Assembly: GCA_964496415.1 (NCBI GenBank)
Contig: CAZBZN010000024.1
Coordinates: forward strand, 1-10,922
Reading direction: 5' to 3'
From: Candidatus Micrarchaeota archaeon
Lineage (GTDB): Archaea; B1Sed10-29; JAJRYS01
Length of the DNA stretch: 10,922 nt
Shown here in pieces: positions 201 through 10,922 of the stretch (positions within the stretch are counted from its first letter, which is position 1; the number at the start of each line of letters is the position of its first letter). The position numbers and the translations under genes are program-made. Below the pieces are notes generated by a model. It was not told where the DNA came from. It saw only the letters and a list, made by a program, of their open reading frames with translations, and made no database searches.

Positions 201-2324
201 ATGTGCGGGATTATTGGTTTTTTTGACTACGATGACTCAGCGCAGAAAACAGTGAAAGGTCTTCAAATAATGAAGAACCGTGGAAAAGATTACTACGGAA
301 TAAGTAATGGAAAAGAAACAATCTACTCTAAAAAACTGAGCCAGTTAAAACTTGAAGGCAAGAACGTGATAGGGCATTGCCTTCATGCAATGGTTTCAGT
401 AGTCCCACAGCCTCTGAAAGCAAAAGGCTTCTTAGTCGCTAACTGCGAGATTTATAATTGGAAAAAAATAAGTAAAAAATACAAGTATGACGCGTGTAAT
501 GATTCAGAAGCTCTGCTTAAGTTGCTTGATGAAAAAGAGTTAAAAGCTTTAAAAGAACTTGACGGAGTGTATGCTTTTTGTTATTGGAAAAACAACAAAG
601 TAGTGTTATGCCGTGACATAATTGGAATAAAACCCTTATGGTATTCATATGATGAGAAGACAGGAAGGTTTTGTTTTGCATCTGAAAAGAAAGCACTTGA
701 ACAGCAGGGGGTAAAAAGAATAGTAGAACTTAATCCTAGAAAGATACTCATTTATGATACTAAAACAAAGAAAATAAGTTTTAGAAAAAGAAGGTTCTTC
801 ACTACAAAGCCAGAAGTAAAGGAAAGCGAAGAAAAGATAGTAAACAAGCTTAAGAGCTTAATTATTGAAAGCGTTAAGAAGAGAATAAGTAACCAAAAGA
901 CAGGGCTTCTTTTCTCATCAGGGATAGATTCTCTCATAATAGCTAAAGTGCTTAAAGACCTTGGAATAGAGTTTACTTGTTATGTTGCAGGATTTCCTGG
1001 TTCAAGAGACGTTGAAGCAGCTGAAAAAGCAGCAAAAGAATTAAGGTTAAAACTAAAAGTTAAAGAGCTTTCACTTCAAGAAGTTGAAGAACTGTTAAAA
1101 GAAGTAATTCCTTTAATAGAAGATAATAATGTTGTAAAAGCAGGAGTAGCGGCAACTCTTTTTGCAGCAGCTAAAAAAATGAAAGAAGATGGAGTGAAAG
1201 TGTGCTTTTCAGGGTCAGGAGCAGATGAGTTGTTTGCTGGTTACGAAAGACACAAAAAGAGTTATGATGTAAACAAGGAGTGCTTGTCAAGCATTAGGAA
1301 GTTCTATGAAGTAAACGCTTACCGGGATGACGTAATAACAATGAATAATAATATTGAACTAAGAGTACCTTTCCTTGACATCAAGCTTGTCAGGTACGCG
1401 TTAAGAATTCCTTCAAGCATGAAAATCAGTAATGGCCAGTCAAAATACGTGTTGAGGAAGGTTGCTGAAAGCCTTGGAATACCAAAACACTTGATAAGGG
1501 AAAAGAAAGCAGCACAATACGGAAGCAGGGTTGACTGGGCTATTCAAAAGCTTGCTAAAAAGCAAGGAAAAACAAAAGCAGACTACCTGAGGCAGTTTTA
1601 TGATTCAGGGAACGTTAAACTTGGAGTGCTGTTCAGTTCAGGCAAGGACAGTTGTCTTGCAATGGAAGTAATGATGAAACAAAACTATGACGTGAAGTGT
1701 TTGATAACAATAAAAAGCAAAAATCCTCACTCTTACATGTTTCACACTCCTAACATTCATCTAACAGAATTACAAGCAAAAGCCATGAACCTTCCAATAA
1801 TAATCCAAGATACTAAAGGTGAAAAAGAAAAAGAACTAAAAGACCTGAAAAAAGCGATTAAGAAAGCAATAGAAGAGTATGAAATTGAAGGAATAGTCAC
1901 TGGAGCATTATATTCTACTTACCAAAGAGACAGAATAGAAAAAATCTGCGACGAGCTTGGATTAAAATGTTTTGCACCACTATGGCATATGGATCAAGAA
2001 AAAGAAATGCGTAGAGTAGTGAAAAACTATAAAATCATATTCACTTCAATTTCAGCTTATGGACTTGATGAGTCATGGCTTGGTAGAAGGATAACTGAAA
2101 AAGACGTGGAAGAACTTGTAAAACTTAATAAAAAATACGGCATAAACGTTGCTGGAGAAGGAGGAGAGTTTGAAAGCTTAGTGCTTGACGCTCCTTTCTT
2201 CAACAAAGAAATAAGAATACTTGACTATGAAATAATTAAAGAAAATGAATTCACTGCAAGAATGGTGATTAAAAAAGCAGAATTAGCAAGAAAACAAGTA
2301 TTAAAAACCAAAAATACTTCTTAA
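201..2324 (+). CDS. Fusion of a glutamine-hydrolysing asparagine synthetase-like protein (Ntn amidotransferase plus synthetase domain) and a C-terminal diphthine-ammonia ligase (Dph6/ATP_bind_4) domain
   Basis: AsnB-type motifs: MCGI (catalytic Cys2), NCEIYN, RDIIGIKPL, PP-loop FSSGIDS, SGSGADELFAGY, ELRVPFLD. From about residue 471 there is a second PP-loop LFSSGKDS, then SYMFH, APLW and GEGGEFES (Dph6 family). Confidence 0.9.
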   Translation: MCGIIGFFDYDDSAQKTVKGLQIMKNRGKDYYGISNGKETIYSKKLSQLKLEGKNVIGHCLHAMVSVVPQPLKAKGFLVANCEIYNWKKISKKYKYDACNDSEALLKLLDEKELKALKELDGVYAFCYWKNNKVVLCRDIIGIKPLWYSYDEKTGRFCFASEKKALEQQGVKRIVELNPRKILIYDTKTKKISFRKRRFFTTKPEVKESEEKIVNKLKSLIIESVKKRISNQKTGLLFSSGIDSLIIAKVLKDLGIEFTCYVAGFPGSRDVEAAEKAAKELRLKLKVKELSLQEVEELLKEVIPLIEDNNVVKAGVAATLFAAAKKMKEDGVKVCFSGSGADELFAGYERHKKSYDVNKECLSSIRKFYEVNAYRDDVITMNNNIELRVPFLDIKLVRYALRIPSSMKISNGQSKYVLRKVAESLGIPKHLIREKKAAQYGSRVDWAIQKLAKKQGKTKADYLRQFYDSGNVKLGVLFSSGKDSCLAMEVMMKQNYDVKCLITIKSKNPHSYMFHTPNIHLTELQAKAMNLPIIIQDTKGEKEKELKDLKKAIKKAIEEYEIEGIVTGALYSTYQRDRIEKICDELGLKCFAPLWHMDQEKEMRRVVKNYKIIFTSISAYGLDESWLGRRITEKDVEELVKLNKKYGINVAGEGGEFESLVLDAPFFNKEIRILDYEIIKENEFTARMVIKKAELARKQVLKTKNTS

Positions 2325-6878: not shown

Positions 6879-7799
6879 TTAAAAAGCTTGTTTAAAAGGT
6901 TTACTTCTTGGAACAAACCTGACTCTTGGCCTTCCTTGCCCTGTTTTTGCTTTCATGTACTTGCTGAACTCACAGCAGCAGTTTTCAATGTTTGAAAGTG
7001 AAATCCTTTTAATCGGGTAATCTTTCCAGTAGTAATGCAAGAACTTGAAGTCAAGCCCAAACTCTTCAAAGTACTTGAACTGATTATCACGAAGGAATAT
7101 CATGGCGTCAAGCTCGTCTTTTGCCTTAAGATCAGGCCAGATGAACCTAAGGCCTCTCTTGCAGCCGTTCCCAGCAACAGCCCAGTCACCGTCCTCGCTG
7201 AAAGGAACAATTTTGTTATAAGTCAGGTCAAGAAGTATCTGGTAGCCAAGGAAATCACCTATTCCTGGAACGCTTGATATTACTTCAAAACACTCTTGCA
7301 TTGAATCAGCATGAGTAACCTCATCGTACAAGTCATCAAGGTTCCTGAACACGTGGTCTATTACTTCCACTATGTTAACGTACTTGTAAGGAGAGCCAGC
7401 GAACTTCTGGCCAGTGACTATGAAAGCAGAAGTGAATATCTTCATGCCTTTATTCTTCATCATAGTTAGCTTCTCAAGCAGTTTGCCCTTATCATACTCG
7501 TCGATTGTTTGAAAGCCGATGAAGCCAAAAGTCTCTGTCCGGTTAAACAACCTGTACACGAAAACGTTGAAGAACTGTTCCTTCTTACTGCCTTTGTTAA
7601 AAATGTGGTCGAACAAGTAGTAAGTGCCAGGGTCAAGTATCCTGTAAACGTTAGTGAACTTGTACTTCTTAAGTATTTCATCATTCGTCCATTCTTCTCT
7701 TGGAAGCTTCAGGATATTCCTCCTGTACCAAATCTCCTGCCTCTCTGTGACAAACCAGTAAAACATCCTCAGGTTTTCCTCAGCATCCTCAAAACGCAT
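6879..7799 (-). CDS. DNA base-hypermodification family protein (aGPT-Pplase clade 1 / 5-hmdU DNA kinase helical-domain-like, HhH fold)
   Basis: ERQEIWYRR...WTNDEILKKYKFTNVYR, YRLFNR, FTSAFIV, HhH-like VPGIGDFLGYQILLD, AGNGCKRGL and ENCCCEFSKY, recalled as motifs of this family. Confidence 0.75.
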   Translation of the reverse strand: MRFEDAEENLRMFYWFVTERQEIWYRRNILKLPREEWTNDEILKKYKFTNVYRILDPGTYYLFDHIFNKGSKKEQFFNVFVYRLFNRTETFGFIGFQTIDEYDKGKLLEKLTMMKNKGMKIFTSAFIVTGQKFAGSPYKYVNIVEVIDHVFRNLDDLYDEVTHADSMQECFEVISSVPGIGDFLGYQILLDLTYNKIVPFSEDGDWAVAGNGCKRGLRFIWPDLKAKDELDAMIFLRDNQFKYFEEFGLDFKFLHYYWKDYPIKRISLSNIENCCCEFSKYMKAKTGQGRPRVRFVPRSKPFKQAF

Positions 7800-7885: not shown

Positions 7886-7910
7886 GCTGCTCTGCAGTCA
7901 CAGCTTCATC
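7886..7910. repeat. Junction repeat copy 1
   Basis: GCTGCTCTGCAGTCACAGCTTCATC; the first 19 nt match 9486-9504 at 18/19. Confidence 0.85.
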
Positions 7911-7957
7911 AAACACTTTTCCATCTTATAGCACAGTAGTTACAAGTATAACTATTT

Positions 7958-8206
7958 TTACTCATCTACAAATATTTCTCTTTTTAATAAAACACTAATC
8001 AATTGGGTCACTTTATCTGCTATCTCTTCTTTACTTTCTTTACATTCCTTAGAAAGCTTTTCAATAACATACTCTACTGACTTTAAATCTATCTCGTCTA
8101 ATAACTTTTTACCTTCCTCTTTAACGACTATAATTGACCCAGGAACACCCATTATATATCCAAAACTTTCTTTTCTAACTCTTAATCTCGGATTATACTT
8201 TATCAT
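7958..8206 (-). CDS. Stand-alone PqqD/MftB-like RiPP recognition element (82 aa)
   Basis: Size and pattern fit an RRE: N-terminal strands PRLRVRKESFGYIM resembling MftB RPEPFGALL, then helices ending LISVLLKREIF. The start overlaps the radical SAM stop codon (ATGA). Confidence 0.75.
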   Translation of the reverse strand: MIKYNPRLRVRKESFGYIMGVPGSIIVVKEEGKKLLDEIDLKSVEYVIEKLSKECKESKEEIADKVTQLISVLLKREIFVDE

Positions 8207-9198
8207 TCATCCTCACATCCAACCAGATAATCCACATTATAAATCCTGTCATTCGTGCGGGGATCAGAAAAATAACAGCCACCTTCACAATCTTTAAAAT
8301 AAGGGCATTTCTTGCATTTATCACATAGCCAATCAAACTTTCTAAATTCTTTCAAAGTTTCTGAATTCCAAATCTCTGTTAGAGACTCTTTAAAAATATT
8401 TCCAACAACCATTTCAGTAGTCGGACAGATTTTAACATCCCCATTAGGAGTTATAGCACAAAAAGAAAACCCTGCGTTGCATTTATGAACTAAATCTTTA
8501 TACTCCTTACCTAGAACACATAAAGGTACCATATCAGCAAATGATATATTAACTTTAAAATCCTGGCTGGCTTTCTTCATTAATTCTGCTAACTCTTTAA
8601 TATCACTTTTCGACAAAGCAAGATCATTGTATTTTTTTCCTGAACCAGATTCAAAAAATCTATTTACAGCTATATTTTGAACATCAAATTTTTCTACAAA
8701 AAACTTAATATATTCATATATTTCTCTATAATTGCTTTTGATAGCGGTGAAATTTAAAGTTACTGGGATTCCTTTTTCTCTGATCTTTTTAAGAGATTCA
8801 ATTGTTTTGAACCAGGCCCCCTTTACTTGAACTATGCTATCATGCTTCTCAGGATTACATGAATGAATTGAAATGCCTATCCCTGAATCAGTTTCCTTAA
8901 TCACATCTATAATTTTCTCACTTATATTATAACAATTTGAAACTATTCCTGTAAATAACCCTATATCATAAGCATATTCAAAAAGTTCTTTAAGATAAGG
9001 ATAAAGAGTTGGCTCACCTCCAAAAAAGTTAACTTCAAACACATCCGCTTCTCTTAACCTATCAAGAATTTCTTTATGATGTTCTAAAGAATAAAAATTC
9101 TCAGCTTTTCTTTCTCCAGCATAACAAAATTTACATTTCAAATTACAATTATTAGTCACCTCAAAATTAACATACAAGGGAGCTTTTAAGTTAATCAT
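8203..9198 (-). CDS. Radical SAM/SPASM-domain protein, probable peptide maturase
   Basis: CxxxCxxC (CNLKCKFC), GGEP, and SPASM motifs CNAG...ITPNGDVKICP and CKKCPYFKDCEGGC (Cx2Cx5Cx3C). Confidence 0.93.
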   Translation of the reverse strand: MINLKAPLYVNFEVTNNCNLKCKFCYAGERKAENFYSLEHHKEILDRLREADVFEVNFFGGEPTLYPYLKELFEYAYDIGLFTGIVSNCYNISEKIIDVIKETDSGIGISIHSCNPEKHDSIVQVKGAWFKTIESLKKIREKGIPVTLNFTAIKSNYREIYEYIKFFVEKFDVQNIAVNRFFESGSGKKYNDLALSKSDIKELAELMKKASQDFKVNISFADMVPLCVLGKEYKDLVHKCNAGFSFCAITPNGDVKICPTTEMVVGNIFKESLTEIWNSETLKEFRKFDWLCDKCKKCPYFKDCEGGCYFSDPRTNDRIYNVDYLVGCEDE

Positions 9199-9249
9199 TT
9201 CATTAACTTTAAGCTTCTTTTCAAATGCAAAAGAAATTCCCAGCCCCCC

Positions 9250-9405
9250 TCAACACTTACCAGTCGGCGCACATTTACAATGACAACCAAGACATTTTTT
9301 CTTATCACTCATATGTACAGGCAAATCAGAAGATAAGTCTAATTCTTCAATTTTGAAATGGTCAAGAATCCCAAACATACCATCTATTTCACTAATGGAT
9401 TTCAT
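9250..9405 (-). CDS. Unannotated 51-aa Cys-rich putative RiPP precursor peptide
   Basis: MKSISEIDGMFGILDHFKIEELDLSSDLPVHMSDKKKCLGCHCKCAPTGKC*. SD GGGGTGA at 9416-9410. Acidic leader and five Cys in the last 14 residues; ends 51 nt before the radical SAM start. Confidence 0.82.
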   Translation of the reverse strand: MKSISEIDGMFGILDHFKIEELDLSSDLPVHMSDKKKCLGCHCKCAPTGKC

Positions 9406-9485
9406 GCCATCACCCCAATTATATTTTATTACTACTTATTTATAAAACCTCCTAAAATAGCCCCTTATAAAATATTTAATTTAAT

Positions 9486-9532
9486 GCTGCTCTGCACTCA
9501 CAGCAAGAGGACAACTGATGATCTGCTTCTAA
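9486..9532. repeat. Junction repeat copy 2 (long form, imperfect hairpin)
   Basis: GCTGCTCTGCACTCACAGCAAGAGGACAACTGATGATCTGCTTCTAA; 9489-9532 aligns to 10229-10273 at 37/45 columns. Confidence 0.9.
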
Positions 9533-9579
9533 CCTCTATTTAATAGCATAAGACCTAATATTCAAACCACCACAAATTT

Positions 9580-9798
9580 TTATTTCTTCAACATCCTCAC
9601 AGCAGTGCATAATGGGATCTCTTCTTTTTTGGAAACCTGTATTGCTTCTTCTACCCTGCTCCAAGAACCAAGTTCAGAATAAGCCCATGCTAAAGCAAAA
9701 GGCGGGCAGTAAAGCTTTTCTCTCTCCCATAACTCAAGAGCCTTGTCAGCAAGTTCAGGAAACTCTTCTTCCAACTCTTTCCTAAGAACTTCCTTCAT
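9580..9798 (-). CDS. Hypothetical 72-aa protein (MKEVLRKELEEEF...VRMLKK)
   Basis: The ATG at 9798 is preceded by GGAGGGGGTG (9813-9804). The longer 9945 start in the ORF track overlaps the cupin gene extensively and is unlikely. Confidence 0.7.
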   Translation of the reverse strand: MKEVLRKELEEEFPELADKALELWEREKLYCPPFALAWAYSELGSWSRVEEAIQVSKKEEIPLCTAVRMLKK

Positions 9799-10207
9799 AA
9801 ACACACCCCCTCCTAGCTGCTCTGCAGTAACCTGCTTTATCTTCGTTTTCAGGATACAAAATTTGATCATCCCTTCTAAAATTAATTTTAAGAACCAACA
9901 TTTCCAAGCTTTCATTTGAAAGATTTGTAAAACTGTGTTTTTCACCTACGTCAACAAAAAGAAGATCCCTTTCAGAGAGTTCAAATACTTTACCTTCAAT
10001 TTCTGCCCTCACATTACCCCTTGTTATATAAAATATTTCAGAAGTATAGTGATGAGCATGGGGAGGGATCCTTCCTCCAGGAGGTATGATAACATACTGA
10101 ATTAAATTAACAGATGGGGGTATGTTTTCCAATAACACTCTCTTTTGATAATTCATCTCTCCTTTTCCTTTAATCCATTTGCTTTCATCACTTTTAAAAA
10201 TTTTCAC
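9782..10207 (-). CDS. Cupin-domain protein
   Basis: Cupin motif 1 PPGGRIPPHAHHYTSEIFYITRG and motif 2 DLLFVDVGEKHSFTN. GTG start with SD GGGTGAGG at 10219-10212. The C-terminal tail reads through a junction repeat. Confidence 0.88.
   Translation of the reverse strand: MKIFKSDESKWIKGKGEMNYQKRVLLENIPPSVNLIQYVIIPPGGRIPPHAHHYTSEIFYITRGNVRAEIEGKVFELSERDLLFVDVGEKHSFTNLSNESLEMLVLKINFRRDDQILYPENEDKAGYCRAARRGCVYEGSS
9816..9841. repeat. Junction repeat copy 3 (short form)
   Basis: GCTGCTCTGCAGTAACCTGCTTTATC; the first 13 nt are identical to copy 1, and the ends are similar (GCTTTATC vs GCTTCATC). Confidence 0.8.
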
Positions 10208-10228
10208 CTATCCTCACCCACCGTACGA

Positions 10229-10273
10229 GCTACGCACTCACAGACAAGAGCACAGCTAATGATCTGCGGCTAA
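10229..10273. repeat. Junction repeat copy 4 (long form)
   Basis: GCTACGCACTCACAGACAAGAGCACAGCTAATGATCTGCGGCTAA; 37/45 identical to copy 2. Confidence 0.88.
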
Positions 10274-10282
10274 TTTCATTAG

Positions 10283-10813
10283 CTATTTCAATTTTTTAAG
10301 CTTTCTCTCGATTTCTCTCATCTTCTTCTCAGCATATTCTCTAGCCTCTGGAAGCATGAAAGAAGCTTCTAAATCTCTACGTAACTTCTGTAAGGCTTTC
10401 TCCAGTCCTAGGATTTTCACAAGTAATTCAAACCTACCAAAATGAGCCATGTTATCAGCTGATGCTACTATTTTTGCTTCTATTGTTTTTGGTTCAGGTG
10501 GTTTTCTTGTTCTATGAGTCTTAATGCAATGGACAATTTTGCTTATTTTCTCTTTGCTCATGTTAATAGAATTAAGAAATTCTTCTGCTTCTTTCGCAGA
10601 AGCAACTTCATGAGCTCTCCCCTTATAACCACCAACGGGATGTACTATGTCATGGAGCCACGCAGCAATCTCAACTACTTCCTCATCAGCTTCAGGATAG
10701 AAAGAGCAAAGCCACTTACTATGAGCAACAACTAATTTAACATGATGTTTAATAAACCAATCTGGAAGATTTTTCTTCACAAAACCCTTAACTTTTCTAA
10801 TATCCTTTCTCAT
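10283..10813 (-). CDS. HD-domain metal-dependent phosphohydrolase
   Basis: HHVKLV, AAWLHDI, HEVASA, IKTH and VASADN motifs. TTTAAATA about 25 nt upstream suggests a leaderless promoter. Confidence 0.88.
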   Translation of the reverse strand: MRKDIRKVKGFVKKNLPDWFIKHHVKLVVAHSKWLCSFYPEADEEVVEIAAWLHDIVHPVGGYKGRAHEVASAKEAEEFLNSINMSKEKISKIVHCIKTHRTRKPPEPKTIEAKIVASADNMAHFGRFELLVKILGLEKALQKLRRDLEASFMLPEAREYAEKKMREIERKLKKLK

Positions 10814-10844
10814 CAGTAAAATTAAGAACTTGGCTATTTAAAAA

Positions 10845-10877
10845 TTAGTGCTGCTCTGCACTCAAGATCTTCTTCAT
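10845..10877. repeat. Junction repeat copy 5
   Basis: TTAGTGCTGCTCTGCACTCA (10845-10864) matches 9481-9500 at 19/20. It is followed by AGATCTTCTTCAT, which resembles the GATCTGCTTC right end of copy 2. Confidence 0.85.
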
Positions 10878-10922
10878 ACAGCCATGCAGCTGTCTGTCAG
10901 CCTGGTGTCGTCATCGCAGCTG

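Follow-up and report, generated by a model that had tools for sequence, protein, structure and literature searches.

Three adjacent genes, encoding a 51-aa cysteine-rich precursor peptide, a radical SAM/SPASM enzyme and a stand-alone RRE, constitute an undescribed family of RRE-dependent radical SAM RiPPs that reaches beyond the archaea. The assignment is made because the third protein has an RRE fold, because the SPASM enzyme stays under the cut-offs of the curated models and because a CxCxC peptide co-occurs with the enzyme in its relatives; all three parts had been named in an earlier sequence-only reading and were borne out by Pfam, fold comparison and co-occurrence. The layout of peptide, SPASM enzyme and RRE is a standard one, and the chemistry is one that we infer. 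The window, by which we mean the whole stretch of 10,922 nt that was analysed, is contig C24 of a 687-kb, 41-contig genome that is 91% complete, and the public datasets that match its DNA are both hydrothermal-vent metagenomes, one of them possibly the source, with no RNA dataset among the listed matches. The features of the locus are collected in Table 1.

Table 1. Features of the three-gene unit and its surroundings in the window.
Feature	Position	Strand	Basis and remarks
51-aa precursor peptide ORF	9250..9405	-	Composition; motif also found beside relatives
Precursor Shine-Dalgarno sequence GGGGTGA	9410..9416	-	Read from the sequence; 4 nt before ATG
TATA-like TTTATAAA	9439..9446	-	34-41 nt before precursor start; putative promoter, by sequence
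331-aa radical SAM/SPASM enzyme	8203..9198	-	Pfam, AF2 model, alignment
82-aa stand-alone RRE (PqqD-like)	7958..8206	-	AF2 fold, family HMM; ATGA overlap with enzyme
Upstream boundary repeat TGCAGAGCAGC	9486..9496	-	Exact repeat search
Downstream boundary repeat TGCAGAGCAGC	7886..7896	-	Exact repeat search
~70-nt RNA-like element, 3' end identical to the boundary repeat	10850..10920	-	Putatively C/D-box-like; single-copy; presumed anchor for the array

The precursor carries cysteines at positions 38, 41, 43, 45 and 51, that is, a CxxCxCxC motif and a terminal Cys within a C-terminal GKC; its residues 1-34 form an acidic leader with a net charge of -6, and the core, which lacks aromatic residues, has a charge of +5. 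The short ORF is real, as had been proposed; it has a Shine-Dalgarno sequence, FKIEELD and IDGMFG in the acidic leader, and a basic core. Cys-rich shadow ORFs are frequent in this genome; among its 5146 small ORFs of 25-90 aa, 682 of which are unshadowed by a long ORF, a CxCxC motif within the last 20 residues was found in three, and the window peptide is the sole unshadowed one (1/682). A word search with the precursor gave no homologue candidate, an atlas search gave matches below 0.9, which are uninformative, and no family in Pfam or NCBIfam matched it. The IDGMFG in the leader had been read as a hint of a link to mycofactocin, and this hint did not hold up, the motif being present in none of the 11 related peptides aligned. 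Mycofactocin itself was rejected since the enzyme reaches 122.5 of the 265 bits of the MftC model and the precursor ends in GKC and not in the C-terminal Val-Tyr that a mycofactocin precursor requires (PMC10288494).

The AF2 model of the 82-aa protein (pLDDT 92) consists of three strands followed by three helices, and it superposes on the lasso-peptide RREs TbiB1 and lasso B1 with TM scores of 0.78-0.81, though with E values of 0.013-0.024. The Pfam PqqD score is 19.8 bits, below the cut-off of 23.4, and an HMM built from the RREs of relatives matches this ORF alone among 6112 ORFs (E 4.4e-8). These results confirm the RRE fold that had been predicted, and the translational coupling of its gene to the enzyme gene is present in the sequence. 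As had also been stated, no protease or exporter lies inside the three-gene unit; a C39 peptidase was not found in the 91%-complete genome.

The enzyme matches Radical_SAM (E 1.7e-27) and SPASM (E 1e-14) in Pfam above their cut-offs and has CxxxCxxC at residues 18-25. Its AF2 model (pLDDT 93.6) gave SuiB, SkfB and anSME as the top Foldseek matches, with SuiB first, and when the family profile was compared with solved structures the sactisynthase SkfB was the best match (E 5e-41) and PqqE the second. Among the best 25 of the 90 NCBIfam models matched, the enzyme stays under every cut-off, the best score being 149 bits for the GeoRSP model TIGR04303, whose cut-off is 400; no curated family among those searched in NCBIfam and Pfam covers it, and the claim that the family is undescribed stands. 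In the SPASM region, Cys227, 240, 258, 295, 298, 304 and 308 are invariant in 30 of 30 sequences and Asp323 is kept in 27 of 30, giving eight conserved candidate cluster ligands. Judged by alignment and general ligand patterns, the extra Cys227 upstream on the linker and Asp323 at the last position may saturate both auxiliary clusters. In CteB the thiol of the substrate is bound by an open iron of an auxiliary cluster (PMC8172795), a site that saturated clusters would lack. At six positions close to the active site the window enzyme has Y-F-V-S-P-T, which matches none of CteB (F-F-T-S-H-Q) and StsB (Y-T-I-S-K-L), as given in PMC10288494, or SkfB (Y-T-F-S-Q-L in our own alignment).

The window enzyme has no close relative, its best matches being about 35-40% identical (39-40% at most). 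Loci from genomes and metagenomes were counted as distinct enzymes with at least 450 nt upstream. A CxCxC peptide within 450 nt upstream was present at 24 of the 28 loci with a family-HMM score of at least 300, at one of nine loci scoring 230-300 and at two of 115 loci below 230, one of these two being a truncated family member. The expectation that similar Cys peptides would lie upstream of enzyme homologues is supported by close as against distant loci. Among the 28 close loci are L132, a copy of the window, and numerous almost identical enzymes from a single clade, which leaves about four to six independent lineages. L132 shows five differences from the window in 5702, all of them outside the three-gene unit. 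The four motif-negative close loci are L118, L039, L119 and L198: at L118:2246-3178 a fusion of an RRE with a PrmC/MTS-type methyltransferase comes after the family enzyme, and no peptide was seen in the vicinity; L039, probably from Desulforhopalus, has a peptide with CAGHCRCV, in which there is CxC only; L119 has a different Cys peptide, downstream of the enzyme; and at L198 the upstream peptide is incompletely readable and an HExxH gene lies upstream.

The order of peptide, enzyme and RRE is common to the window, L038, L120 and the large clade. At L038, from Ca. Methanoperedens, a 44-aa peptide ending in CVCRCGN precedes the enzyme and an overlapping RRE, and another CxCxC peptide is also present; at L120 the peptide, of 46 aa, ends in CTCPCRCY and the enzyme and the RRE come after it; and the 40-43-aa peptides of the large clade end in CAGQCTCRCCK or close to it. 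The peptides of L149-151 end in CKCRCRCNSG. Many relatives have a C-terminal tail on the enzyme, which in P0123 and P0128 is a fused PqqD domain above the Pfam cut-off, the same order as that of the separate enzyme and RRE genes of the window. Codon changes in the precursors of the large clade (53 synonymous versus 49 non-synonymous) are as expected of a coding gene. This clade differs from the window in that the enzymes are ~34% identical and lie on different deep branches, and in that the window leader is acidic and the HExxH gene is missing; this protease-like fourth gene was present in four of the four large-clade loci checked and was not found in the 91%-complete window genome.

In the aligned peptides the cysteines are the only strictly conserved core residues and no acceptor residue is conserved, GxGxG downstream of CxCxC is absent in all 12 peptides, and only one to three residues follow the last motif Cys in eight of the ten motif-bearing peptides aligned. 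Five cysteines, which had been put forward as the mark of the family, are not what is shared: the conserved part is CxCxC, often with one Cys 3-4 residues earlier, and Cys51 is private to the window. The leaders differ, with YxxP in several of the Methanoperedens-side group and none in the window, and the window leader has no detectable likeness to those of its relatives; of the 8-9 peptides scanned, none matched NCBIfam or Pfam.

A quick tree pairs the window enzyme with P0121 (support 98) on a deep branch apart from both the large clade and the Methanoperedens/L120 group, and support is weak (79) for the 48-row group in which it is joined with the motif-bearing relatives. An orthologue of the enzyme was found in none of the other 30 genomes of its own phylum, in one of 251 genomes from the phylum to which G061 belongs (a search of 301 gave that one genome once more) and in none of 42 in one further lineage search; two of 251 genomes in the class of G063 match, among them L201 with an N-terminal extension and without a peptide. 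Viral contigs gave one weak match only, and all 598 plasmid records were below 60% identity, the best 10 of the 598 being at 28-29%. The family had been called archaeal, and this must be widened, as its members probably include Desulforhopalus beside Ca. Methanoperedens. No paper on the family was found in the accessible literature; six uncharacterised precursor groups in the PDF supplement of PMC10288494 may include it.

Among known systems, StsA/StsB/StsC of Streptomyces sparsogenes (PMC10288494) shares a CxCxC precursor, a SPASM radical SAM enzyme related to the MftC/PqqE group and a stand-alone RRE. StsA has a CxCxCx4GxGxG core that forms a Cys-Gly hairpin, whereas the window family lacks GxGxG and has another active-site profile; an StsA-type sactipeptide was rejected, as the core is absent and NF045574 gives 80.2 bits against a cut-off of 625. 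CrpA/CrpC of Methanococcus voltae (TIGR04463) likewise combines an archaeal SPASM enzyme and RRE with an adjoining Cys-rich substrate, but CrpC carries its RRE as an N-terminal fusion and acts on a 29-kDa substrate in which CxxQ/D is repeated (PMC13692751), whereas the window family has a separate or C-terminal RRE and a putative substrate of 40-51 aa. The SCIFF/ranthipeptide systems (CteA-CteB, PapA-PapB), SkfB and AlbA also pair an RRE-dependent SPASM/twitch enzyme with a Cys-rich precursor; they differ by an N-terminally fused RRE, by other Cys spacing and, in CteB, by an open auxiliary site, and on the window enzyme all SCIFF/ranthipeptide and hairpin sactipeptide models are far under cut-off. 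GeoRSP (TIGR04302-04304), which gave the best NCBIfam score, shares a short enzyme and a separate PqqD-like protein but stays under its cut-off, has no SPASM-only partner in the unit and is itself uncharacterised. PQQ was rejected on 117 of 381 bits for PqqE and 23 of 46 bits for PqqD, and the SbtM thio(seleno)oxazole system, which would call for a GGUG precursor and selenium machinery, on a TIGR04082 score under cut-off and on selD, which was not found.

Our best guess for the reaction, held with slightly less than even confidence, is that the enzyme cross-links the CxCxC tail by thioethers, as had been suggested. The RRE would hold the acidic leader while the enzyme would abstract a hydrogen in the core and join the sulfurs of Cys41, Cys43 and Cys45 to carbons of nearby residues, giving thioether rings; metal binding may be the role of the product. 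Thioether formation leads because only Cys is conserved in the core, because SkfB is the best solved match, because CxCxC is the set of thioether donors in StsA (PMC10288494) and because CrpC, an archaeal SPASM/RRE enzyme, makes thioethers (PMC13692751). To judge from their tails, most relatives are unable to form a hairpin of the StsA type: with one to three residues after the motif, acceptors would lie between or before the cysteines, in a ring pattern unlike that of StsA. Since the unit has no protease or exporter, the product would stay intracellular with its leader or would use host enzymes. The unmatched Y-F-V-S-P-T profile, the lack of GxGxG and of a conserved acceptor, the possible saturation of the clusters and the presence of SuiB and anSME among the top folds all argue against thioethers. 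The motif-negative loci (four of 28 close ones and eight of nine in the next score band), the weakly supported group in the tree and the dissimilar window leader likewise count against this explanation.

An alternative that we regard as unlikely is that the enzyme oxidises the C-beta of Cys, in the manner of anSME or SbtM, to thioaldehydes which would yield 5-thiooxazoles or be hydrolysed, leaving a metal-chelating tail. Such a reaction would suit cores without conserved acceptors and tails that end so soon after the last motif Cys, and the eight conserved candidate ligands recall anSME, which is among the top fold matches and whose auxiliary clusters are fully ligated. SbtM is a SPASM enzyme that does carry out C-beta oxidation on Cys (PMC9204691), but it is the single characterised precedent in the literature consulted and acts at Gly-Cys, whereas most motif cysteines here follow other residues, and its model TIGR04082 gives 93 bits against a cut-off of 350.

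We give a similarly low probability to a peptide that is the substrate but keeps its cysteines free, for metal or disulfides, while the enzyme acts on other residues, epimerising them or forming a C-C bond. In its CxxCxCxC the peptide is similar to metal sites of the metallothionein type, and neither the top Foldseek match nor the second profile match is a thioether enzyme, SuiB forming a C-C cross-link and PqqE likewise making no thioether. No non-Cys target residue, however, is conserved across the lineages, and the window core offers no aromatic residue.

Less probable still, the peptide may be unprocessed here, either with a cassette that was imported and is recent, silent or decaying, or with an enzyme that acts on another substrate. 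The low G+C of the enzyme gene (fifth lowest of 317 long ORFs), the lack of an orthologue in the rest of the phylum, the missing HExxH gene and the family enzymes without a visible peptide would fit an import of this kind. Against it, all three frames are intact, the Shine-Dalgarno sequence, the coupling and all invariant cysteines have been kept along a long branch, and contigs from a second DNA run are identical over 7936-8677 and 8726-9422; as this run matches without difference, the stop between peptide and enzyme is no assembly error.

Precursor and enzyme share one frame that is interrupted by this single TGA and no other stop, and the enzyme ATG has no clear Shine-Dalgarno sequence, yet it is very improbable that the TGA is read through (selenocysteine or a leaky stop) and that the peptide forms the N-terminal part of an enzyme of 400 aa, given that an open in-frame gap exists in only six of 31 family loci (13 are out of frame and 12 have extra stops), that TGA terminates 189 of 447 long frames in the window genome, that selD was not found in the 91%-complete genome, that no stable hairpin follows the TGA (z 0.66) and that homologues start near ATG 9198. 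A longer enzyme beginning at a CTG after a G-rich run is possible but was rejected, also on the start of the homologues.

The unit has natural borders. The genome has exactly four copies of the 11-nt boundary repeat, at 7886, 9486, 9816 and 10850 on the same strand, with a degenerate fifth near 10228; four copies were seen in none of 200 shuffles (mean 0.2). Two of the copies enclose just the three genes, which makes these the complete unit, and since the repeat duplicates the 3' end of the ~70-nt element, the unit resembles a single cassette in an array whose members can be exchanged. The array at 7886-10920 (-) holds an HD domain, a cupin, a 72-aa orphan and the RiPP unit, then a 5-hmdU kinase-like gene; its genes are separated by copies of the element 3' end, and relatives have other genes at the same place. 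In G007, an orthologue of the window's TrmB-like gene, the repeat and a HicB/HicA-like pair stand behind the element, and in G004 and G011 an antitoxin/RelE-like pair, these pairs being named by eye; in the L132 assembly, the end of a HicA-like gene precedes the element.

The element is found once per genome in seven of 31 phylum genomes. It contains C/D-box-like motifs, and two of its stretches are complementary to tRNA-Leu(taa), at the D loop and at the anticodon; it is a candidate guide RNA for wobble-position methylation; Rfam gave no match to it, and only a chance match (E 0.29) inside the enzyme gene. The repeats, the differing genes behind the element and the low G+C and missing phylum orthologues of the enzyme gene suggest that the unit arrived as a tandem insertion behind a small RNA gene, at its 3' end. 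The cupin frame at 9782-9835 (-) runs through a boundary repeat into the start of the next gene, and the end of the cupin gene appears altered as if by insertion. An integron array was rejected, as folding of the internal sites is weak (-3 to -6 kcal/mol), inspection by eye revealed no R-box pair, and a tyrosine recombinase (PF00589) was not found in the 91%-complete genome. A sigma-70 scan gave chance-level hits, and no terminator was found.

A bolder reading combines these observations, and we think it rather improbable as a whole: a cross-domain RiPP family of small genomes, whose enzyme with saturated clusters would perform a new reaction on CxCxC (stacked thiooxazoles, or thioethers from Cys to Cys or to upstream residues), giving an intracellular metal-binding peptide, and whose 1.6-kb cassette would insert 3' of a C/D-box tRNA guide gene.

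Several other genes were observed in passing. At 6879-7799 (-) the window encodes a stand-alone 5-hmdU DNA kinase helical domain (PF18723, E 1.5e-66), which was not found in four genomes of the same family; 5-hmdU kinase genes are tied to base hypermodification. The gene at 201-2324 (+) joins an asparagine synthase to an archaeal diphthine-ammonia ligase; the latter is above cut-off and, together with the genome size, indicates an archaeon with a small genome. In G000, a 45-aa peptide ending in AHPGCCKQ (C3:31404-31541 (-)) stands directly before the gene of a 428-aa radical SAM protein with 16 Cys (C3:30104-31390 (-)), a RiPP-like pair, and at C8:28767-32028 (-) three radical SAM/SPASM genes overlap, and a short ORF with Cys lies close by on the opposite strand. 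An 86-aa ORF with repeated SCKLAC at L002:2785-3045 (G045), upstream of a 416-aa SPASM enzyme, is a candidate archaeal RiPP, and at L077:652-3136 (Ca. Altiarchaeota) a 114-aa His-Ser-rich precursor-like ORF ending in CSCGCVGRIGSA precedes two radical SAM genes.

Few archaeal radical SAM peptide pathways have been characterised, and symbionts with small genomes have little room for them. The unit is made up of three short genes, and as its borders are natural it lends itself to testing in a single co-expression. For most relatives the geometry of the tail excludes the CxCxC hairpin that is already known, so that a new ring pattern would result even in the ordinary case, and the enzyme may perform new chemistry. 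The repeat borders, in turn, suggest how such pathways may enter tiny genomes.
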